From: Escherichia phage JM10
DNA length: 64,000 nucleotides
Strand: one strand, 5' to 3'
Sequence record: PP400777
Part shown: one piece after another, positions 5,295-42,245 of the stretch
Layout: each line of letters begins with the position of its first letter
Position numbering within the stretch: the first letter of the stretch is position 1
The notes under the pieces: generated by a model
Told to the model about the DNA's origin: nothing
Databases searched by the model: none
Seen by the model: the letters and a program-made list of their open reading frames with translations, nothing else
Program-made: the position numbers and the translations under genes

Positions 5295-5577
5295 TAGCCT
5301 GACGTGTAGTAACCCACTGGATTTTAATTAACTTGTCATTATATGGTTGTCGTAGAATATCCCGAGATTTCTTAATAGCATATTCGTAAGCTTCGAAGTT
5401 GTTTTTAATTGCTGCTTCTTGAGCATGAGCATAAAGACGGTTTAGTTCAAAACGATTCTTTTTAAGAATCTTTTCGGATTTTTTACGTGCTTCAGCTTCA
5501 TTTTTCTTTTGGATTTCTTGTAGCATTTTAGCTACTGCATCTTCTGCTTCTTTATTTTCAATAATCTCGGTAGTCAT
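5254..5577 (-). CDS. hypothetical protein (47.1 position), Lys/Glu-rich
   Basis: 107-aa ORF; no recognisable motif. Confidence 0.5.
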   Translation of the reverse strand: MTTEIIENKEAEDAVAKMLQEIQKKNEAEARKKSEKILKKNRFELNRLYAHAQEAAIKNNFEAYEYAIKKSRDILRQPYNDKLIKIQWVTTRQAIEDIINGASSNKV

Positions 5578-5578
5578 A

Positions 5579-5794
5579 TTATCTCATTAAATTAAAATAA
5601 AAACGTCCATCCTCTTCAATACAGAACTCATACTCAACCGGAGTCCCATTTATCGAAAATGACACGTCATGTGGGTTCAAAGGGTCGATGTCAAAATTAA
5701 TTTTAAATTCACGACCCAACAATTTTACCAAATAAGGGATTGCTTCGTCAAAAGGTTCTTCTAAGTAGTTAGAGATGTCAATTGTCATCCTCAT
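5579..5794 (-). CDS. hypothetical small protein
   Basis: ORF-track ORF 5579..5872 overlaps the gene 55 3' end; trimmed to the internal ATG at 5794. No clear RBS. Confidence 0.3.
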
Positions 5795-6353
5795 ATAAAA
5801 AATCCAAACTAGGCGAATCGCTAACAACTTCCTTCTTTTCAGCCCCAGGAGCTTTATAAGCGGATTCTTCATAACGCGTCATTTTATCGTAGATGTCTTG
5901 AATAAACGTTTCATCTACCAACGCTACCATATCATCGTCATGACTGTCGTAGACATTATGAACGAAGTAACTATATTTCTTTGCAACTTCCTTACGTTCT
6001 TTTTTGATACGTTGGACAAAAGCATTAAAACAAGCTCGAGTTATGTATGCATGTGGGTTATTGTACTTAGTTTCGTCGAAATTATGAAGTCCCTTAATAG
6101 AGGCTTCAATACCATCTGCAATCATCTCCTGCTTCCAAGACTGGGTATATCCTGAAAAGTTGAAACGTTTGGACAGGCCTTCGGCGATAAGCATAATTGC
6201 TAAACCGATGGTATCATTCTGACGAATAATTTTGTTTGGGTCTTTATTATTTAAGAGCTCCTTTTTCCACTCGATTATAGCGGCGAGAAGCTCTTTATTA
6301 TTCACATAGTTATTTTTATGTTTTTGTTCAGTCATAAGTACCTCTTGGCTCAA
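5778..6353 (-). CDS. 55: late-transcription sigma factor gp55
   Basis: 191 aa colinear with my recollection of T4 gp55 (…[32 protein letters not shown]…). Confidence 0.9.
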
Positions 6354-10730: not shown

Positions 10731-11775
10731 CATTATATTCAGCATGAGTCGCAAATTCATGCCCGTTTATATGAAACAACAAAATTTGGATAGTCCATAG
10801 ATATGCAACGTTCTTTTATAGTGCTAGGATGAAAATTTAGCGCTTTAGCTGCTTCTATATAAGACGTATACTTAATACCGTCAACAACCACATATTCAGG
10901 AACTTTATGAATAGTAGTCTTAATACTCAAAACAAGAGGATGAGTTTCGACTTCACTTTCAGTGCAATTTAAATATTCCGCTGCTTTTTTAAAACTTCTA
11001 AAAGTTTTATTTTTAAGCTTTATCGATACTTGTTTTTTACTTTTTCGACTATTGATATTATTTTGCACATGTTCCTTAGATCTTCCGTTTTTAGCATAAT
11101 ATTCAGCTACAGAAGATTTTATATTGTTTTTATGAGATTCGGATAACACTTTACCCTTATGAGCATCTCTTAATTTTTGAATATGTTCTTCAGTATCCGG
11201 ATGCTTATAAAACTTTTTACCGCCTATGGATTTATTTAAACATTTTTTGCTATAAAAATATTTACGTATGACCTCTTCTTCATGTTTTAATGCATCTTTA
11301 TAACTATCAAATGTTTTTAAAATTATCCATTTAGTAGGTGTATCAGTTTTTAAGCGTTCATTTATATACTTAGATGACGTTGTGTAAGTTTTCCAGTTTG
11401 TGGGCTTGTTTTTAATTGTTCTAAATTTTTTATAACCGATATAAATGTCGCCATTAGAAAACTTAACTAAGTATGTAAATGCGTCTTTATCTTTTATTTT
11501 AGTACAACGTCTTTTTATCCATTTCATTGTTTCACCTCGTATTCATAAGATAATCTTATTTATACAAGATGACTGCTGCATGTCGCCATGCAGATTAGAC
11601 TATATCTTCATCTTTCGATGCCGGCCGTTTCGAATAGCATTAGCTTCTATTCTACACCGCTACATTCATCACGGTTAGTCGTTAGGCATTTAGTTCAAAA
11701 GAACATTTAGCACGGGATTGTCTACTAGAGAGGTTCCCCGTTTAGACCGGTTTTACATGAGCCTGAATTAAATTA
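10731..11775 (-). mobile_element. group I self-splicing intron in nrdD carrying a homing endonuclease ORF
   Basis: Conserved group I core on the minus strand (TCTAAACGGGGAACCTCTCTAGTAGACAATCCCGTGCTAAAT, AAATGCCTAACGACTA); P1 pairing of exon UAUGAGU with IGS GCUCAUG gives U-G at the 5' splice site; intron ends …GAATATAATG. Confidence 0.8.
10757..11527 (-). CDS. intron-encoded GIY-YIG homing endonuclease (I-TevII-like)
   Basis: 256 aa; GIY-YIG-like N-terminus (YLVKFSNGDIYIGY), NUMOD3-like basic repeats, I-TevI-like C-terminal DNA-binding module. Confidence 0.8.
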   Translation of the reverse strand: MKWIKRRCTKIKDKDAFTYLVKFSNGDIYIGYKKFRTIKNKPTNWKTYTTSSKYINERLKTDTPTKWIILKTFDSYKDALKHEEEVIRKYFYSKKCLNKSIGGKKFYKHPDTEEHIQKLRDAHKGKVLSESHKNNIKSSVAEYYAKNGRSKEHVQNNINSRKSKKQVSIKLKNKTFRSFKKAAEYLNCTESEVETHPLVLSIKTTIHKVPEYVVVDGIKYTSYIEAAKALNFHPSTIKERCISMDYPNFVVSYKRA

Positions 11776-12313
11776 ACTCATACGCCTGGAATGCATCGTA
11801 TACATCTTTTTCTGTTTTAGATTGAGCATAATTCAACGCATCAGCGATTTGCCATTTTTCTGCATCCTCAATATGTTTTGCATAGGTGCGTTTAACATAA
11901 GGAGAAAGAACTTTATCTACATTCGCAAATGTAGTTCCGCCATACTGGTGTGAAGCAACTTGTGCGGTAATTTGTGCCATAATTGCAGTAGCAACACCAA
12001 TAGATTTAGGCGTTTCAATTTGAGCATTGCCTAATTTAAATCCATTCTCAAGCATCCCCTTTAAATCGACTAAACAGCAATTGGTAAACGGAAGAGCAGG
12101 AGAATAATCAATATCATGCATGTGAATGATTCCACTTTCATGCGCATTCATAATAAAAGACGGGACCATATTTTTGGCAATGTGCTTAGACACAATACCA
12201 GCCATAAGGTCCCGTTGAGTTGGAAAAACACGAGAATCTTTATTAGCATTCTCGTTTAAAAGATCTTTATTAGTTTTATGAATCAGTCCTTCAATTTCTT
12301 TTTCAATTTTCAT
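11776..12313 (-). CDS. nrdD: anaerobic ribonucleoside-triphosphate reductase NrdD, exon 1 (N-terminal part)
   Basis: N-terminal 179 codons; the in-frame stop at 11768 lies in the intron just past the 5' splice site. Confidence 0.85.
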
Positions 12314-12783
12314 TTTAAACTCTTTCTAAGCTGCTTTTTGAATGAAGCTATTAATTGTGTTTTAGTATCAGATTCATTATATTCAAATCCTCTTTGAAGC
12401 ATCTCAGCCATCATTTCCTCTTTACCTAGTCTTGAGAACTCTTTAGTTTTGTCTGGAACAAAATTAGGATGGATATTATTATCAGAATAATCTTGTTTCA
12501 AATAAGCAAGAAGAGCTTCAAGCCATTCGAGGTAGTCAACATCACGTCCTTTAAGACCGGAACGGTTGAACTTATGCTTCATTTGACCTTCTGCTGCGTT
12601 GCACAGATTACAGAGTAATCCACGAACTCTACCGGCTTTTGGCCCGTTTAATTCGTGGTCGTGGTCAAGATGGTTACCTTGAACATCAGGGTCTAATTCA
12701 CGGTGGCAAATAGGACACTTACCGTTCTGTGCATCATAAAATTTTTGTTTTTCTTCTTTATATTTTGCGCCTGATAATAACAT
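12310..12783 (-). CDS. 49: endonuclease VII (Holliday junction resolvase) gp49
   Basis: 157 aa; zinc-binding CPIC…CNLCN; colinear with my recollection of T4 endo VII. Confidence 0.9.
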   Translation of the reverse strand: MLLSGAKYKEEKQKFYDAQNGKCPICHRELDPDVQGNHLDHDHELNGPKAGRVRGLLCNLCNAAEGQMKHKFNRSGLKGRDVDYLEWLEALLAYLKQDYSDNNIHPNFVPDKTKEFSRLGKEEMMAEMLQRGFEYNESDTKTQLIASFKKQLRKSLK

Positions 12784-12822
12784 GATAAACCCTTACCTTA
12801 AATAGATAAGGGTATTTATAAT

Positions 12823-16496: not shown

Positions 16497-17021
16497 TGCG
16501 TGAACCGTCTTTAAACGTTCTTCAAATTTCCGAAGAGTACTAATACGTTCTGCTTTCTGTTTTGTATAGTTTGCAATACGTTCTGAAGTGAGAGCGTATC
16601 GTTCGTTTACTGTTTCTTTCATGAAGTCAGGGATTTCACGAGAAGCTTTAATTTCATCAAACTTATCGAGTACTGCCTGGTCTTCAGCGATTAAATTTTC
16701 GTACATCTCGATATCTTTCTTGATAAACTCGATATCTTCCTGGGTTACTTTGGATAAATGAGATGCTTTATCCTTTTTGTACTGCTCGTTAGTTTCACGA
16801 GACCAGAATAATGTACGTTTTTTGTTAGTGTTTTTGTAGACTTCCACAATTCCAACCGAATCGATGATAACAATCCAATTCCAGCGAGATTTGAAAATCT
16901 GACCTCCGTCCACGGTAATCTCGTTACCATAAGCAACGTCATTAAAGAACTTGCTTTGTGCTTCAGATTTAAATTTACCGTCGTTATAATTTACCAGGTT
17001 GAAAATATCTTTAGCGTTCAT
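16494..17021 (-). CDS. hypothetical protein
   Basis: 175 aa; GGAGGT RBS. Confidence 0.55.
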   Translation of the reverse strand: MNAKDIFNLVNYNDGKFKSEAQSKFFNDVAYGNEITVDGGQIFKSRWNWIVIIDSVGIVEVYKNTNKKRTLFWSRETNEQYKKDKASHLSKVTQEDIEFIKKDIEMYENLIAEDQAVLDKFDEIKASREIPDFMKETVNERYALTSERIANYTKQKAERISTLRKFEERLKTVHA

Positions 17022-17037
17022 GTTTTACCTCCAGTAG

Positions 17038-17077
17038 TTGATAGGTCTATAATAACATAACCGTAGACCTTGTAAAC
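17038..17077 (-). promoter_or_regulatory. PeSL-like early promoter + stem-loop cassette
   Basis: Minus strand GTTTAC-17-TATTAT with inverted repeat AGGTCTA/TAGACCT, then GGAGG RBS. Confidence 0.45.
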
Positions 17078-17079
17078 AA

Positions 17080-17367
17080 CTAAAAGAAACTTTTTTCGGT
17101 ATTTTTTCCACTGAACCAAACAGACTTCGGGATTTTTTGTAATTTTTCAGATTTAAGTTTCTCTTCCTGTTCTTTCTTATATACACCCTTGTCGTACTGG
17201 AGCATCTCTATGGCATTCTTTTGCAAACGATCTAAGGTAATTAAGGCTTTAGTTTTTCCTTTCAAGGAAGAGTCCTGGCGAACCTCCTCACTATATTGCA
17301 TCGTAGAACTAACCATACGATGAGCATAGAGTTCGACTGCGGCTTTAATTTTTTGCATAAAATCCAT
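17080..17367 (-). CDS. hypothetical protein
   Basis: 95 aa; GAGGA RBS. Confidence 0.45.
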   Translation of the reverse strand: MDFMQKIKAAVELYAHRMVSSTMQYSEEVRQDSSLKGKTKALITLDRLQKNAIEMLQYDKGVYKKEQEEKLKSEKLQKIPKSVWFSGKNTEKSFF

Positions 17368-17505
17368 AACATATCCTCTTTGATTTGTACATCATTATTT
17401 TTAAATATTTCTATGCCCTCAGTAGGTTCCTGGTGTCCTTCTTTGAGGTAAGCCATATGATTATTCATCTTTATGGCTTTTGTTACCTCAGAACTTCCTA
17501 TAAGC

Positions 17506-18507
17506 TTATTTCAGTAAAGTTACTTCAGAGATTTCCTCCCAACCATCTTTATCAGTTGAAATAAAATCTGCTACATAAAGAGCCGTACGTAATGATACAT
17601 TGCGAAGACGAGATACGTTAGCCTTCATCCAGGACAATGCTTTATACGTTTCTGCATCCGTCAGACCACGTTTCTGCATCATGTCAGTAGATAATATTAC
17701 ATCTTCAACTCGAACCATAATCTCTTCATTAGAGTGTACTCCAAGGTCCAAATACACTGAACGAGATACTAAAGCTTGAAGGTGTGGAGCAAGTTTAGAA
17801 CCGCGTTCTAACTCTTTATCGATATCAACGTTTGTAATGAAAACGATAGTACCTTCAAACTCAAATTCTTTATCAATACCCTTATCATCGAGATAAGATG
17901 ACGCAGTGCTCCAACAAACTTTGCGTTTATCTCCGGTATCTAATGCTGCTTTAAGAAGGTTCAAGATGTCCATATCTGAGAATACGTCAACGTCGTCGAT
18001 TAAGAGAACGCTGTCTGCATCACGGTTGAGCCAAAGTTGTTCGTAAAGGCCGATACCAGAGATTTTACCATTAATGCTTTTGTATTTGATGAAACCATTA
18101 TCATTAGCATTATTAAGCGCTTTATCCAGAGAATACGTCTTACCAATACCGGCTGCACCTGAAATAATGAGTGAACGAATTTTGCCATCAATAATGCCAT
18201 TCGTCATCATGTTCATTACTTTAAAGCGTTTGTTGATACGAGTTTTCATATCTTCAGTGCTTTCAACAACTGCAACCGGTGACGTCTCAACTCCTTCCAT
18301 TACGATGTCTGATTTGAAGACCCATACTCCACGTTCAGAACCATCAATCATAACGAAAATTTTACCATCACCTAAGTGGGAACATTCAGGATTAAGCTTT
18401 GCCGGGAACCAGGTCTTTGTGGCGACATAAGAACCAGAGATTTCGTTATTACGGTAGATACCTTTTTTGATTTGAACGTTGAACATTTTATTCTCCAATT
18501 TACTCAT
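17506..18507 (-). CDS. P-loop NTPase (AAA-like ATPase)
   Basis: 333 aa; Walker A GAAGIGKT and Walker B LLIDDVD. Confidence 0.65.
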   Translation of the reverse strand: MSKLENKMFNVQIKKGIYRNNEISGSYVATKTWFPAKLNPECSHLGDGKIFVMIDGSERGVWVFKSDIVMEGVETSPVAVVESTEDMKTRINKRFKVMNMMTNGIIDGKIRSLIISGAAGIGKTYSLDKALNNANDNGFIKYKSINGKISGIGLYEQLWLNRDADSVLLIDDVDVFSDMDILNLLKAALDTGDKRKVCWSTASSYLDDKGIDKEFEFEGTIVFITNVDIDKELERGSKLAPHLQALVSRSVYLDLGVHSNEEIMVRVEDVILSTDMMQKRGLTDAETYKALSWMKANVSRLRNVSLRTALYVADFISTDKDGWEEISEVTLLK

Positions 18508-18515
18508 TTCGTTTC

Positions 18516-18554
18516 GATAGGTCTATAATAACATGTTTAAAGCAAAAGTAAACA
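18516..18554 (-). promoter_or_regulatory. PeSL-like early promoter cassette
   Basis: Minus strand GTTTAC-17-TATTAT-AGACCTATC, upstream of the ATPase gene. Confidence 0.4.
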
Positions 18555-18555
18555 A

Positions 18556-18774
18556 TTATTTGCGACGAGATTTTTTGGTAAGAGGTTGAAAGAACACTGC
18601 TTTACCGGCTGGGGTTAAGGTGACTCGTAACGCATTACCGATTCCTAAGGATGCTTTAACTAGACCTTTAGCTTTCAGTTCACCGAATGCTTGACGTTGG
18701 TCTGCATCACGAGTGTTAACCATAAGACCTTTATCACCAGTTTCACGAATCATTTCTAACATTTTGGTTTTCAT
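18556..18774 (-). CDS. hypothetical small protein
   Basis: 72 aa from the internal ATG with a strong GAGGAG RBS. Confidence 0.5.
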   Translation of the reverse strand: MKTKMLEMIRETGDKGLMVNTRDADQRQAFGELKAKGLVKASLGIGNALRVTLTPAGKAVFFQPLTKKSRRK

Positions 18775-18791
18775 TTTGTTCTCCTCTTGTT

Positions 18792-18830
18792 TTGATAGGT
18801 CTATAATAACATATCCTAAAAGCATGTACA
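18792..18830 (-). promoter_or_regulatory. PeSL-like early promoter cassette
   Basis: Minus strand TGTACA-17-TATTAT-AGACCTATCAA. Confidence 0.4.
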
Positions 18831-18849
18831 CTACTTTTTAAAAATATTT

Positions 18850-18877
18850 TGACCCCCTAAAGGGACCCGAAGGTCCC
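18850..18877 (-). terminator. terminator-like hairpin
   Basis: Minus strand GGGACC-TTCG-GGTCCC followed by TTT; downstream of 18883..19164. Confidence 0.4.
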
Positions 18878-18882
18878 CACAT

Positions 18883-19164
18883 TTACTTATCGCACTTAGC
18901 AACATAATTAGGCATATCACAGAATACGGAGCGAGTAACTACTCGACCCTTTGACCATGCTTCAGTTGCTTGTCCGGCCGTGCTATTAATATAGCTTGAT
19001 TTAATGTTCTCAATACCCTGAGAATGTGATGCATTTACCGAACCATTAGAAGGCCCAGAAGTCTGGTTACCACCAGCTCCTGTACTACCGTTGGCTGCAC
19101 CCGTGGTAGCACCAACAGAGAATGCCATCATTACTGCGAATAAACCAATTACTAATTTTTTCAT
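18883..19164 (-). CDS. secreted Gly/Ser/Asn-rich protein (signal peptide)
   Basis: 93 aa; N-terminal MKKLVIGLFAVMMAFSVGA, two C-terminal Cys; a TATAAATA late-promoter match lies 33 nt upstream. Confidence 0.55.
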   Translation of the reverse strand: MKKLVIGLFAVMMAFSVGATTGAANGSTGAGGNQTSGPSNGSVNASHSQGIENIKSSYINSTAGQATEAWSKGRVVTRSVFCDMPNYVAKCDK

Positions 19165-19195
19165 ATTTACCTCAAGTTAATGGTTATTTATCTAT

Positions 19196-20182
19196 TTATT
19201 TATAGTAAGAATTATGATTTTCGAGATAGACTTGCTCAAGGAAATCATCCCAGAAACTCATATCTACTTTTTGTTGCATACCATTCTTGGCAGCTTGTTC
19301 CGATGCTTGTTCAACTTGGTCAACGATATCTTCTAGGAATTCTTGTACAGTTTTAAACGTATGTTTACCAAGCTTAACATCGAGAATAAATGGAGCATCC
19401 TGAAGTGGGTAAACCAGGTCGCCGGTTTTGTAAATTTCCAATAATTGAAGTCCACCACGACATGCATGACTCAATGCTTTCCAGTCAATACCTTCGTTGG
19501 CTTCAGCCTTACGAGCACGTTCGCCATAGTTCTCTTCCAGTTTAACCAGGATGGCATTGAACTCTTTATTGGTTAACGTATCTTGGAATTTACGGTCTAA
19601 CAGATTATAGAATGTTTGCTTACCTGTTTTCTCGTTTTCGGTTTCAACCCACGAAGCAAATTCACCTACAGGCAGAACATTCTTCATATGTGATAAACGA
19701 ATTACTGCACCATTATCAAAGTATTGTCCCCATTCATTAGAACGTTTAAGGGCTTGACGAAGAACAGCCAGTCGAGAACCCTTGACACCGTATTTAGAAG
19801 CTTGCTTACGGACATACCCTAAATAAGATTTCATGTTAGTGGTATAGAAACGAGACCTGTTATCTTGAATATACTTCCATACATCAGGCAAATCAGATTT
19901 AACTACTAGACTTTGTGGAGTGTGAAGCATATCTAATGCGACGGTTTCACCATCCGCAGCTAGTTTAAAGAAATATTTGAGACTATATAACTCATGGTCC
20001 ACGTCGTCTTTTGTGTTCTTAGAAGATGTGTTATTCGTGTTCTTGCTCATGTGTTCTTTAACGTTACCGGACAAGATATCACGAGCATGAGGGACATAAA
20101 TTTCTTTAAAATCGACGTCAGATTCAGGAGTAGACGTTCCATAAAGGTGGCTACCAAAGTAAGCCTTAACAATCGTTTTCAT
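19196..20182 (-). CDS. nucleotidyltransferase-fold protein (Pol-beta superfamily-like)
   Basis: 328 aa; N-terminal FGSHLYGTSTPESDVDF fits the G[SG]x(9-13)DxD minimal NTase signature. Confidence 0.6.
   Translation of the reverse strand: MKTIVKAYFGSHLYGTSTPESDVDFKEIYVPHARDILSGNVKEHMSKNTNNTSSKNTKDDVDHELYSLKYFFKLAADGETVALDMLHTPQSLVVKSDLPDVWKYIQDNRSRFYTTNMKSYLGYVRKQASKYGVKGSRLAVLRQALKRSNEWGQYFDNGAVIRLSHMKNVLPVGEFASWVETENEKTGKQTFYNLLDRKFQDTLTNKEFNAILVKLEENYGERARKAEANEGIDWKALSHACRGGLQLLEIYKTGDLVYPLQDAPFILDVKLGKHTFKTVQEFLEDIVDQVEQASEQAAKNGMQQKVDMSFWDDFLEQVYLENHNSYYK
19197..19204 (-). promoter_or_regulatory. late promoter candidate (TATAAATA)
   Basis: Exact TATAAATA on the minus strand, inside the 3' end of the upstream ORF. 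Confidence 0.45.
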
Positions 20183-20580
20183 TATTTAGCCTTATATTCA
20201 AGAGTAGGACAGACTTTTTCTTTACGAGCTTTAAGGTATTCACCTATTAATGATTTCTTACGTTCAATAGGCTCAAGTCCATTTTTAATTCGTTCTTGGT
20301 TTTGCGCAATGAGCTCAATTTCTTTATAATATTTTCTGTCGTTATATTTGTCTAACAACCAAGACGGACCAATTACTAACCCGGTAGCAATAAAATCCAT
20401 GACTGCTACAATTAAAATGCCTAAACCAATTGAAGCCGGAACTAATGTCCATAGACTGCTAAAAACAAAGAATTTAGTTAAAATTTCCTGGCAAATGATT
20501 GTGACTGCTGCTAAAATCACAAATCCAATAATTGAAGCAGCCAATACCGGGATTAACGTTTTCCAAAAATAAGCACACAA
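20182..20580 (-). CDS. membrane protein
   Basis: 132 aa with about three hydrophobic helices. Confidence 0.5.
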   Translation of the reverse strand: MCAYFWKTLIPVLAASIIGFVILAAVTIICQEILTKFFVFSSLWTLVPASIGLGILIVAVMDFIATGLVIGPSWLLDKYNDRKYYKEIELIAQNQERIKNGLEPIERKKSLIGEYLKARKEKVCPTLEYKAK

Positions 20581-20664
20581 CGTTTTCGGACGATTCTATG
20601 TACTATTGAACGCGGTATAAAGTTTAAAGTGCCAAGAGTTTTCATTGATAATCATAATAATTCC

Positions 20665-21207
20665 TTATTTCAAAGTTGGGATAATAGAATCGAGATAAGC
20701 TTTAAGAGCAACTGCCTCATCTTTGTCTAATGTAATGATATGTTGACGAAGGTCATCAATTTGGCGAATAACTACGACATCACCATCTTCATAAGAAGGA
20801 TTAACGCCTAGGACTGTTGTATAGTCAGGGCGGTCCTGATTTGTAATAAAAGCATTACGGCATTTAGCCCATTGAAGTTTGGCCTTTTTGGCTGTTTCAG
20901 ATTCCATGAATTCTTTCACCTTAGTGACAAATGTTTTCCAATTATTAATAGAAAAACATTCATCTTCGGTTTCGATATTAACCCCACTATAAAGTCCGTG
21001 ATAAAAACGAACTTGAAGGTCTTCATCAATGTTAATTACAGATGCATGACCCGGTGGATTGAGTTTCAAAATCTTGTCTAGTTCCATAGGAAGAATAGTA
21101 ACAACATCATCTTCTTGCGTCAGAACGTACGCATAACCACGTTTTTCGATACATAAATCACCAAACAACTCAGTCGTTTCAATTACAGTTTTCATATTAT
21201 TCACCAA
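20665..21207 (-). CDS. hypothetical protein
   Basis: 180-aa ORF. Confidence 0.55.
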   Translation of the reverse strand: MVNNMKTVIETTELFGDLCIEKRGYAYVLTQEDDVVTILPMELDKILKLNPPGHASVINIDEDLQVRFYHGLYSGVNIETEDECFSINNWKTFVTKVKEFMESETAKKAKLQWAKCRNAFITNQDRPDYTTVLGVNPSYEDGDVVVIRQIDDLRQHIITLDKDEAVALKAYLDSIIPTLK

Positions 21208-21958: not shown

Positions 21959-22261
21959 TTAGATAGATGTAGGCTCTAATTTTATTTTCATGAACTCAGC
22001 AAATTGTCTGGCAGTTTTTATGCCTTGTTCATGACATTCAAATGCATCATCACAGGGGCTATTTTTGTAATGCTTTGCCATATACTTATAGAATTTTTCA
22101 GAATTCTCGACATTTTGAATTTCAAACAAAGTATATACGTTTTTAATCCCTGATTCCATAAAGTTATCAAAATATGGGTCGATATATGCAGTACCAACGA
22201 TAGGAGTTGTTGCTGCAAAAAACCACAGCATCGCCATGACAGCTATCGCTCTTAAGGCCAT
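21959..22261 (-). CDS. rI: lysis inhibition regulator RI-like (signal-anchored periplasmic protein)
   Basis: 100 aa; resembles my recollection of T4 RI (…DPYFDNFMESGIKNVY…); located next to tk. Confidence 0.7.
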   Translation of the reverse strand: MALRAIAVMAMLWFFAATTPIVGTAYIDPYFDNFMESGIKNVYTLFEIQNVENSEKFYKYMAKHYKNSPCDDAFECHEQGIKTARQFAEFMKIKLEPTSI

Positions 22262-22273
22262 ATAGGCCTCCTG

Positions 22274-22486
22274 TTAATTTTGGCCAGTATTTATTTTTCG
22301 CCTTTGGACGGCCTTAACATCTGTGAGGTATTTTTCCAGCTTGCGCTTGCGTGTATAATCAGCTTTAGAACCAGTTTGACGGATATCCTCGTTTAAATGA
22401 GAAATAGAATGTCCTAATTCTCTTCGGATTTCATCCAATTGGGTTACAGTAAGATTACGAAGTTGTCTTTCGTTTAATTGCTGCAT
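22274..22486 (-). CDS. hypothetical protein (rI.1 position)
   Basis: 70-aa ORF between rI and tk. Confidence 0.5.
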
Positions 22487-22513
22487 ATATACCTCTTGGT
22501 TAGATATTAGTAT

Positions 22514-23095
22514 TTATAACAACCCTGTCAAATCATTCCAATGCTTCCGGCATAATGACACGTATCTATCGGTATCACCAATTTCAATTTGACTGCCATC
22601 TGTAATTGGAAGTCCGTCTTCCGTGACTCTAGCTACCATTGTGGCCTTTTTACCGCAATGACAGACACCTTTAAGTTCAACAAGCTTATCGGCAATAGCC
22701 ATTAATGCTTGAGAACCTTCAAATAGATTACCTTTAAAATCTGTTCGTAGTCCATATGCCATTACCGGCACATTGTATACGTCAACAATACGACTAAGTT
22801 GATACACCTTTTCAGTAGTTAAGAACTGAGCTTCGTCAACAAATACACAATGAATATCCTTTTGTGCTGCAGCCCATTTATAGAATTCAAAGATATCCAT
22901 GTCTTTTGTAATTATATTGGCATCCTGACGAATACCAATACGAGAGACTATTTCACCTTTTGAATCACGAGTATCAATAGCCGGTTTAAGAACTAATACA
23001 CCCATGCCACGTTCTTTATAGTTATGTGCGGCAGTAAGTAATGAAGCAGACTTACCGGCGTTCATAGCGGCATATGTAAAAATTAAACTAGCCAT
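22514..23095 (-). CDS. tk: thymidine kinase
   Basis: 193 aa; P-loop AAMNAGKS and C-terminal zinc cysteines. Confidence 0.9.
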   Translation of the reverse strand: MASLIFTYAAMNAGKSASLLTAAHNYKERGMGVLVLKPAIDTRDSKGEIVSRIGIRQDANIITKDMDIFEFYKWAAAQKDIHCVFVDEAQFLTTEKVYQLSRIVDVYNVPVMAYGLRTDFKGNLFEGSQALMAIADKLVELKGVCHCGKKATMVARVTEDGLPITDGSQIEIGDTDRYVSLCRKHWNDLTGLL

Positions 23096-23287: not shown

Positions 23288-23778
23288 TTAGGTTCCAAAT
23301 CAACAATCACAATTTCTAGTTTAGTGGAATACGTATCTAAAATCTCTTCGATGACATCCCAGTTTCCACCACCAATACCTGCACCAATTCTTGGCATATA
23401 AATTACAGGCTTTGTTATCTTATTCTTTCCGAATTCATTTAATTCTATTATACAATTCATTAAAGCAGAGTACTCAAAATTAGGTCCCGGCTCAAACTGT
23501 GTATAAAGATTAAAGCAATAAGCTTTATGGGTCTTAAAATATTTTTCATAAACCGAATAAGACCCGAGTTTAGACTCATCTCCGAATTCGGTTTGAAGTT
23601 TATCGGCTTCCAGAATTTTTGGATAAGCCTTTGCTAATTGTCCTGCTACACCAGCGCCCATTGTATGAAAACAATTACACCCATGCGCAATATTATTACC
23701 TTTAGAAAACAGGGCGACAATATCGCCCTTGATATAGTTTTTAATCACTTGCTGCAAGTCCTCTAGTATAAGAGTCAA
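23284..23778 (-). CDS. macro-domain protein (ADP-ribose binding/processing fold)
   Basis: 164 aa; macro-like motifs NIAHGCNCFHTMGAGVAGQL and IYMPRIGAGIGGGNW. Confidence 0.6.
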   Translation of the reverse strand: MTLILEDLQQVIKNYIKGDIVALFSKGNNIAHGCNCFHTMGAGVAGQLAKAYPKILEADKLQTEFGDESKLGSYSVYEKYFKTHKAYCFNLYTQFEPGPNFEYSALMNCIIELNEFGKNKITKPVIYMPRIGAGIGGGNWDVIEEILDTYSTKLEIVIVDLEPK

Positions 23779-24088
23779 CTAGGCGGTCCACCATAGAATT
23801 GCATGCTGCCTTATCTTTAGGTTCCGCCACCGAGCATTCTAATATTTGCCATTTTTTATAGTATCTTTTAATTAAGGTAGACGCCTTGAACCTACTAGAC
23901 GCCCCATCTTTTTCTCCGTCTTTATACGCATATAACAATTTTTGTGAAAAATCTACTTTACACTCTTGACTTTTACCACAATAATCAGACGCCGTTCTGT
24001 TTGTATACTCCGTTACATCAGTATATGTAGTATTAGCAAGAGCGTTAAATGAAACCAAGCCAACTATTAAAGCCAACATTTTGGTCAT
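23741..24088 (-). CDS. secreted protein (signal peptide)
   Basis: 115 aa; N-terminal MTKMLALIVGLVSFNALA. Confidence 0.5.
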   Translation of the reverse strand: MTKMLALIVGLVSFNALANTTYTDVTEYTNRTASDYCGKSQECKVDFSQKLLYAYKDGEKDGASSRFKASTLIKRYYKKWQILECSVAEPKDKAACNSMVDRLVDSYTRGLAASD

Positions 24089-24627
24089 TCTTTTATTTCC
24101 AGTAGTTTATTTGATTTAAGGTAATTAGCCTTTTCTAGGACTTCAGAAGCATATTTACTTCCAGCACTTGTCTTCCATCCTGCATTATATGAGGATATAG
24201 CTTTTCTTATATCCCCGTTATGTATATTTAACCAATAAGAAAATTCGATATAAGCCCATCTGGCTGAATTAGACCGCTTAGATAGCATTTTCTTAATTTG
24301 GGCATCAGTCATATTATAACCAAGCTGGTTAATTCTTGCCCTCATTGTCGGTAGATAATTTTGGAACATTCCATACGCATGGTGACCTTTCTTATCTTTA
24401 AGATTAATACCGGCAGATGATTCCTGCCATAGTATTGCGGCCATTATGTATCCAAGTCCTTTCTTATGCATATTTTCATGCGTTTTAAATTTTCCGTCCT
24501 TAGAAAACTGTTCCCCAAACTGATAAGCATAATTCAAGTTATCGAGTTGGACATTACTAAAAGTATGCTCGGAGCTATGTGCTGATAATGAAAGAGCAAA
24601 TAGACCAGCGAGTAGTGCTTTTCTCAT
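24085..24627 (-). CDS. lytic transglycosylase-like secreted protein (vs.1-like)
   Basis: 180 aa; signal peptide; SLT-like motif WQESSAG…AYGMFQ. Confidence 0.6.
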   Translation of the reverse strand: MRKALLAGLFALSLSAHSSEHTFSNVQLDNLNYAYQFGEQFSKDGKFKTHENMHKKGLGYIMAAILWQESSAGINLKDKKGHHAYGMFQNYLPTMRARINQLGYNMTDAQIKKMLSKRSNSARWAYIEFSYWLNIHNGDIRKAISSYNAGWKTSAGSKYASEVLEKANYLKSNKLLEIKE

Positions 24628-42222: not shown

Positions 42223-42230
42223 TATAAATA
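42223..42230 (+). promoter_or_regulatory. late promoter (TATAAATA) for gene 53
   Basis: Exact TATAAATA 43 nt upstream of the gene 53 start. Confidence 0.6.
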
Positions 42231-42237
42231 GTATTAT

Positions 42238-42245
42238 TATTTATA
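42238..42245 (-). promoter_or_regulatory. late promoter (TATAAATA) for genes 4-2-3
   Basis: Exact TATAAATA on the minus strand 27 nt upstream of the gene 4 ATG; divergent from the gene 53 promoter. Confidence 0.6.

Follow-up and report, generated by a model that had tools for sequence, protein, structure and literature searches.

A small orphan gene with a predicted late promoter and a predicted export signal between nrdC.11 and nrdC.10 of a Mosigvirus

The window, by which we mean the whole stretch of 64,000 nucleotides from Escherichia phage JM10 (PP400777) analysed here, comes from a Mosigvirus, an RB69-group T4-like member of the Straboviridae, and the region under study is 96-98% identical to Mosigvirus genomes. 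On the minus strand, which carries all the features of the locus described below, the gene order is tk, rI.1, rI, mobD.1, a membrane protein gene, nrdC.11, ORF93, ORF72 and nrdC.10. ORF93 (18883..19164), recognized as an open reading frame and by homology and dN/dS, comprises 93 codons plus a stop and belongs to the phrog_2243 family, whose members include VR7ORF099c and JS09_085. Its ATG at 19164 is preceded at 5 nt by the Shine-Dalgarno sequence GAGG (19170..19173). Upstream lies nrdC.11, identified by homology as a nucleotidyltransferase gene (19196..20182). On the other side are ORF72 (18556..18774), which homology places in the RB69ORF102c family (phrog_6001), and nrdC.10, an AAA ATPase gene that ends at 17506. 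ORF72 is a neighbouring cassette that varies independently and is absent in SA79RD.

Directly behind ORF93, the terminator-like hairpin reported by the initial annotation is indeed present: a UUCG-tetraloop structure, GGGGACC-UUCG-GGUCCCU, at 18861..18878, evident from the sequence and matching a terminator annotated in OL960576. Its U-tract is short (UUU, then A), so that the termination efficiency is uncertain, and its fold energy is no better than that of shuffled sequences (z = -0.83). The hairpin is the positional equivalent of one found directly behind nrdC.11 in T4 and RB69; the stem sequence differs among T4, RB69, the window, VR7 and 04086, and the pairing is kept in each of them. It is followed by an early-type promoter at 18830-18803, recognized by its pattern (TGTACA N16 TATTAT with TG) and by a repeat copy at 18503-18561, and the pair makes up a cassette boundary of the PeSL type.

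ORF93 is thus inserted between the nrdC.11 stop codon and the hairpin/terminator that belongs to nrdC.11 itself, and this slot is variable. In T4 and RB69, nrdC.11 ends with TAT-AAA-TGA, and the UUCG hairpin and the next gene's promoter come directly behind it, an arrangement shared at the nrdC.11 end by PhAPEC2, phiC120 and PHB12. The slot holds only ORF72 in RB69, only ORF93 in SA79RD, and both genes in the window and in G2469. On either side of ORF72 stand two copies of the early promoter, contained in 59-nt direct repeats (18503-18561 and 18781-18839) that are 71% identical. SA79RD, without ORF72, carries a hybrid promoter copy, as expected from recombination between the 59-nt copies. Such PeSL (promoter-early stem-loop) shuffling has been described for the hyperplastic regions of T4-type genomes (Arbiol et al. 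2010; Comeau et al. 2014; PMC2839356, PMC4122927). The locus resembles the ORFans bounded by these elements in that the boundary consists of a stem-loop with an early promoter behind it, a further copy of the promoter stands nearby, and single small ORFs come and go between close relatives in exactly this slot. It differs from them in that ORF93 lacks an early promoter, is situated on the upstream side of the stem-loop and would depend on read-through and a late promoter; moreover, the repeated element here flanks ORF72 and not ORF93. A foreign origin was rejected on composition, as the GC content of 0.39-0.41 is unremarkable next to ~0.38 in the flanks. No known RNA family was found at 17000-21000.

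Two further details of this junction were recorded. Phages without ORF93 read TATAAAT-GATAAG-GGCC (positions 5320-5340 of one such locus), and those with ORF93 read TATAAAT, then ORF93 up to TGC, then GATAAG and TAAATGTGGGGACC (window 19190-19204 and 18883-18895); the shared GATAAG, which forms the last two codons of ORF93, may be a deletion scar or may be due to chance. VR7 and 04086 have an additional small basic ORF (VR7ORF100c, 2198-2422 of the VR7 locus; ~2240-2436 of the 04086 locus) that overlaps the nrdC.11 end and precedes the ORF93 homologue; it is absent from Mosigvirus.

We compared ORF93 with its homologues in VR7 (Gaprivervirus) and 04086 (Dhakavirus). Synonymous change is near-saturated in these comparisons, and dN/dS ranges from 0.08 to 0.25 over the whole gene and from 0.02 to 0.23 over the C-terminal 56 codons; by this codon-level measure, ORF93 is a real gene under purifying selection. 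A PHROGs search identified it as a full-length member of phrog_2243 (E = 1.2e-37), a family catalogued without an assigned function. By tblastn, the gene occurs in 102 phage records, all of them Escherichia or Shigella T-even relatives, with 82-97% identity to ~95 Mosigvirus records and 58-61% identity to VR7, VR25 and 04086. The family is accordingly confined to ~100 Mosigvirus genomes and a few Gaprivervirus and Dhakavirus genomes. An index of 5.8 billion proteins gave no matches beyond the T-even coliphage relatives, a profile of the C-terminal domain run against 1.84 billion representative proteins recovered only its own cluster, and IMG/VR yielded just 2 loci. Sequence searches of Pfam, NCBIfam, PADLOC and the PDB returned nothing above threshold for ORF93, and no literature report was found under the family's locus tags or phrog number. 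The nearest Pfam candidate, the YbgS-like family (PF13985), was rejected, since it scores 17.6 bits against a gathering threshold of 27 (E = 0.0047) and covers only the signal peptide and the low-complexity part. As far as these sequence searches reach, phrog_2243 is an orphan family.

Upstream of ORF93, an exact TATAAATA with zero mismatches lies at 19204-19197, overlapping the last codons of nrdC.11, TAT-AAA-TAA (Tyr-Lys-stop). The initial annotation had proposed an exact late promoter 33 nt upstream of a 93-aa ORF; the motif and the ORF are as described, and the spacing to the ATG comes to 32 nt, compared with 24-32 nt at the other sites in the window. We predict from its sequence and conservation that the motif is a gp55-dependent late promoter with its +1 at the A at 19191. 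The raw count of TATAAATA in the window is 10 versus 8.3 expected, which is not significant, so that the presence of the motif alone proves nothing. However, 7/10 of the occurrences end at a distance of 20-35 nt before an ORF of 60 aa or more that has a Shine-Dalgarno sequence and an ATG, versus 1.6% of random positions (binomial P = 3.7e-11), and the ORF93 site has the same geometry as the window's other late-promoter sites. The late sigma factor gp55 is itself encoded in the window (5778-6353, minus strand; phrog_234, E = 1.1e-67). Moreover, the GenBank record OL960576 (phage SA79RD) already carries both annotations, a T4 late promoter at the motif and a terminator at the hairpin. Taken with this annotation, the motif is predicted to fit a T4-type late promoter, in agreement with the earlier claim.

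At 42223-42245, each strand carries an exact TATAAATA, with 8 nt between the two, an arrangement that resembles a pair of divergent late promoters; on the minus strand, the motif is 26 nt away from a downstream ATG that has the Shine-Dalgarno sequence GGAGG.

The comparison of phages with and without the gene bears directly on whether this motif is a working promoter. TATAAATA, with TAA as the stop codon, is present in 10/10 of the ORF93-bearing Mosigvirus loci, whereas TATAAATG takes its place in 5/5 phages that lack ORF93, namely the four Mosigviruses RB69, PhAPEC2, phiC120 and PHB12, and T4. Because the Tyr-Lys codons force TATAAAT, only the last base of the motif is free; in the loci checked, this eighth base is invariably A where the ORF is present and G where it is missing. 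The loci with the ORF are closely related to one another and may all stem from one haplotype. Conversely, the motif could be a mere by-product of the Tyr-Lys-stop codons with no promoter function, in which case ORF93 would be the last cistron of the early/middle nrdC.11 transcript. This is suggested by the occurrence of TATAAATG at the same codons in T4 and RB69, which lack ORF93, by the chance-level motif count and by distant homologues that have no late promoter. We nevertheless consider it unlikely, given the exceptionless switch of the eighth base, the position of most of the window's TATAAATA sites before genes, and the fact that in T4 this octamer is the sole sequence element of a late promoter (PMC1524935). 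The late promoters reported by Nolan et al. 2006 all precede orthologues of T4 late genes. Against that pattern, a late promoter before ORF93, a non-T4 ORFan, is a mild exception that would not surprise a specialist.

The predicted protein falls into three parts. Residues 1-19 (19108..19164) are predicted to be a Sec signal peptide, MKKLVIGLFAVMMAFSVGA, that would be cleaved after V-G-A; the assignment comes from a heuristic and from the invariance of V17 and A19. Residues 20-37 (19054..19107) form a linker of 18 residues rich in Gly, Ser, Asn and Thr, delimited by alignments and an AlphaFold pLDDT below 50, whose length varies through indels even among close relatives. Residues 38-93 (18886..19053) make up a conserved C-terminal domain of 56 aa, delimited by alignments and dN/dS, which contains Cys82 and Cys91 and in which 40/56 columns are invariant across three genera. 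Therefore, the initial description of a low-complexity G/S/N-rich body applies to residues ~20-37 but not to residues 38-93, which constitute the conserved domain with the two cysteines.

The signal peptide that was claimed at the same time fares well in the heuristic analysis. An MKK n-region is followed by the hydrophobic core LVIGLFAVMMAF and then by V-G-A|T, where V17 and A19 (positions -3 and -1, V-x-A) and the following Thr are invariant across three genera. The hydrophobic core spans 12-16 residues, or 8-12 under a strict count. In this heuristic test, the N-terminus has the charged n-region, the core of 7-15 residues and the small residues at -3/-1 of a Sec/SPase I signal. It contains no SPase II lipobox, and no cysteine precedes residue 82. 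ORF93's product is hence predicted from its sequence to be exported to the periplasm. In the proposed pathway, the Sec system would export the precursor and signal peptidase I would cut after V-G-A19, releasing a basic periplasmic protein of ~7.5 kDa (predicted pI ~8.7-9.1). Its N-terminal Gly/Ser tail would be flexible, and its C-terminal domain would be small, mostly helical and probably closed by a disulfide between Cys82 and Cys91. The AlphaFold models are unreliable (pLDDT 51 for the full length and 57 for the C-terminal domain) and give only a hint of a long helix followed by short helices.

The N-terminus might alternatively remain uncleaved, serving as an inner-membrane tether or as a SAR (signal-anchor-release) domain like that of T4 RI; the Gly/Ser stretch would then be the tether, and the C-terminal domain would lie in the periplasm. 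The N-terminus of T4 RI is a SAR domain and looks similar to that of ORF93. Such a topology would fit the uncharged run of 17-21 residues, which is rich in Gly, Ala and Ser, and the flexible linker placed directly behind the hydrophobic stretch. Yet the strict hydrophobic core reaches merely 8-12 residues, and the cross-genus invariance of V-x-A and of the next residue, Thr, is what a signal peptidase I site would lead one to expect. We therefore judge an uncleaved N-terminus to be rather improbable and retain the cleaved, exported form as our prediction.

Next to the export signal, the timing of expression is the point on which our reading departs from the initial annotation, which had described a specifically late protein. 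No terminator-like site was found between nrdC.11 and ORF93. The hairpin that comes directly behind nrdC.11 in T4 and RB69 stands downstream of ORF93 here, so that the pre-replicative nrdC.11 transcript would be expected to include ORF93. The ribosome-binding site of ORF93 would also be open in such a transcript: opening the Shine-Dalgarno-AUG region takes a predicted 2.8-4.0 kcal in read-through RNA, modelled with 60-200 nt of upstream sequence, versus 3.1 kcal in the late RNA, and sequestration of the ORF93 site in the read-through RNA was rejected on these values. By contrast, three positive controls from the same window are predicted to be sequestered, with 14.3-16.4 kcal in read-through RNA versus 3.2 kcal in late RNA for gene 49 and 11.5-12.5 versus 4.0 kcal for the homing endonuclease gene; for rI.1, the values of 6.0-7.1 versus 2.2 kcal correspond to a moderate predicted occlusion. 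Gating of the ribosome-binding site in read-through RNA has been documented for T4 e, 49, soc and I-TevI (PMC3014915). ORF93 is like these T4 genes, whose late promoters lie inside pre-replicative units, in having an exact TATAAATA ~25-32 nt before the start codon, in probably being reached also by early/middle read-through, and in belonging to a phage that encodes gp55. It differs in that their ribosome-binding sites are hidden in a hairpin present only in the read-through RNA, whereas that of ORF93 is predicted to stay open, and in that it is not an orthologue of any T4 gene.

The three control genes also carry late-promoter motifs in the window, all on the minus strand. The homing endonuclease gene (10757-11564; 256 aa, phrog_314) has an exact TATAAATA 29 nt upstream, with predicted late gating as in T4 I-TevI/mobE. 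Gene 49, encoding endonuclease VII (12310-12820), shows the arrangement known from T4, its TATAAATA likewise standing 29 nt upstream. rI.1 (phrog_1826) and the lysis inhibition gene rI (phrog_1246), at 21959-22518, stand behind an exact TATAAATA at 22511-22518.

The distant homologues also argue against late-only expression. In VR7, a VR25-matching contig and 04086, the homologue lacks TATAAATA and has in front of it a perfect TGCTT(C/T)A-N12-TAnnnT instead, the only match to this pattern in each of the three loci. The pattern is the MotA-box consensus of middle promoters (PMC2988021). No MotA-box pattern was found on the minus strand of the window between 19165 and 23441. Over both strands of the whole window, TGCTTYA-N11-13-TANNNT occurs 10 times versus 1.4 expected, and MotA-type middle promoters thus appear to be in use in this phage.

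In the most economical model, ORF93 would be transcribed before replication by read-through from nrdC.11 and translated from its accessible ribosome-binding site. After the onset of replication, gp55-RNA polymerase would start at the TATAAATA made by the Tyr-Lys-TAA end of nrdC.11, giving a leader of ~27 nt and prolonging ORF93 expression into the late period. With early read-through and a late start combined, the protein would probably be made throughout infection and not late only. A periplasmic lysis or superinfection factor that is silent early and switched on by the late promoter, so as to time lysis or to block superinfection, would accord with the exact TATAAATA at canonical spacing, with the predicted export and with the placement of rI.1 and rI, 3 kb upstream, likewise behind a late promoter. 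However, we regard such late-only expression as distinctly improbable, in view of the missing upstream terminator, of the lack of a sequestering structure like those of gene 49, the homing endonuclease gene and rI.1, and of the middle-type promoters without TATAAATA before the homologues in VR7, the VR25-matching contig and 04086; furthermore, the protein shows no similarity to RI, Spackle or other lysis families. Expression throughout infection consequently remains our preferred reading.

As for function, the reading that we hold to be reasonably probable overall is that ORF93 is an ordinary accessory Mosigvirus gene in the nrdC.11-nrdC.10 slot, expressed by read-through and late, with an exported product that acts on the envelope. 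No family, structure or defence-system match was obtained, so that the action on the cell envelope is proposed by analogy. The closest analogues are T4 RI (antiholin) and Spackle (gp61.3). They share with ORF93 a precursor of ~90-100 aa, a non-essential accessory character with a sporadic distribution in an accessory region, an N-terminal export signal and a small helical periplasmic domain with cysteines, the last two of which are predictions in the case of ORF93; they differ from it in having no detectable sequence similarity. Membership of the T4 RI family (phrog_1246) was rejected, because ORF93 matches phrog_2243 only and the rI orthologue is a separate gene at 21959-22261. Superinfection exclusion, resistance to lysis from without and modulation of lysis inhibition are known roles of small periplasmic T-even proteins. 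With low confidence, we name the same three as the likeliest envelope roles of the ORF93 product.

A bolder proposal is that phrog_2243 represents a new class of periplasmic effectors specific to E. coli-infecting T-even relatives and kept on late by a promoter derived from a stop codon. Members of such a class could serve as a receptor or injection blocker (superinfection exclusion), as an inhibitor of a host defence based in the envelope, or as a new holin/antiholin partner in lysis inhibition; we find this proposal doubtful. A microcin-like toxic peptide of the colicin V type, released at lysis or acting on the inner membrane from the periplasm, is barely credible, for although a Gly-rich region, an EAW motif and a C-terminal disulfide loop recall that architecture by eye, BLASTP against verified CvaC aligns an irrelevant segment (E = 7.8), the leader is of the Sec and not the double-glycine type, which together place ORF93 outside the class IIa microcins, the profile search gave no bacterial relatives and no immunity or export genes are adjacent.

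The accessory-gene reading would add one more envelope-targeted protein, by prediction, to the T-even repertoire, and the locus illustrates how one stop-codon base (TAA versus TGA) can provide an inserted cassette with a late promoter. ORF93 occurs sporadically among phages that are therapy candidates against E. coli, so that a role in superinfection exclusion or host range, if true, would be of practical use. At the level of the locus itself, this is a routine annotation-level feature and no discovery, as the promoter and the terminator are already public and the family is already catalogued.

Further upstream, two minus-strand genes at 23741-24088 and 24085-24627, which from the RB69 gene order appear to correspond to vs and vs.1, have the signal-peptide-like N-termini MTKMLALIVGLVSFNALA and MRKALLAGLFALSLSAHS, and exported proteins would thus not be unusual in this early region.
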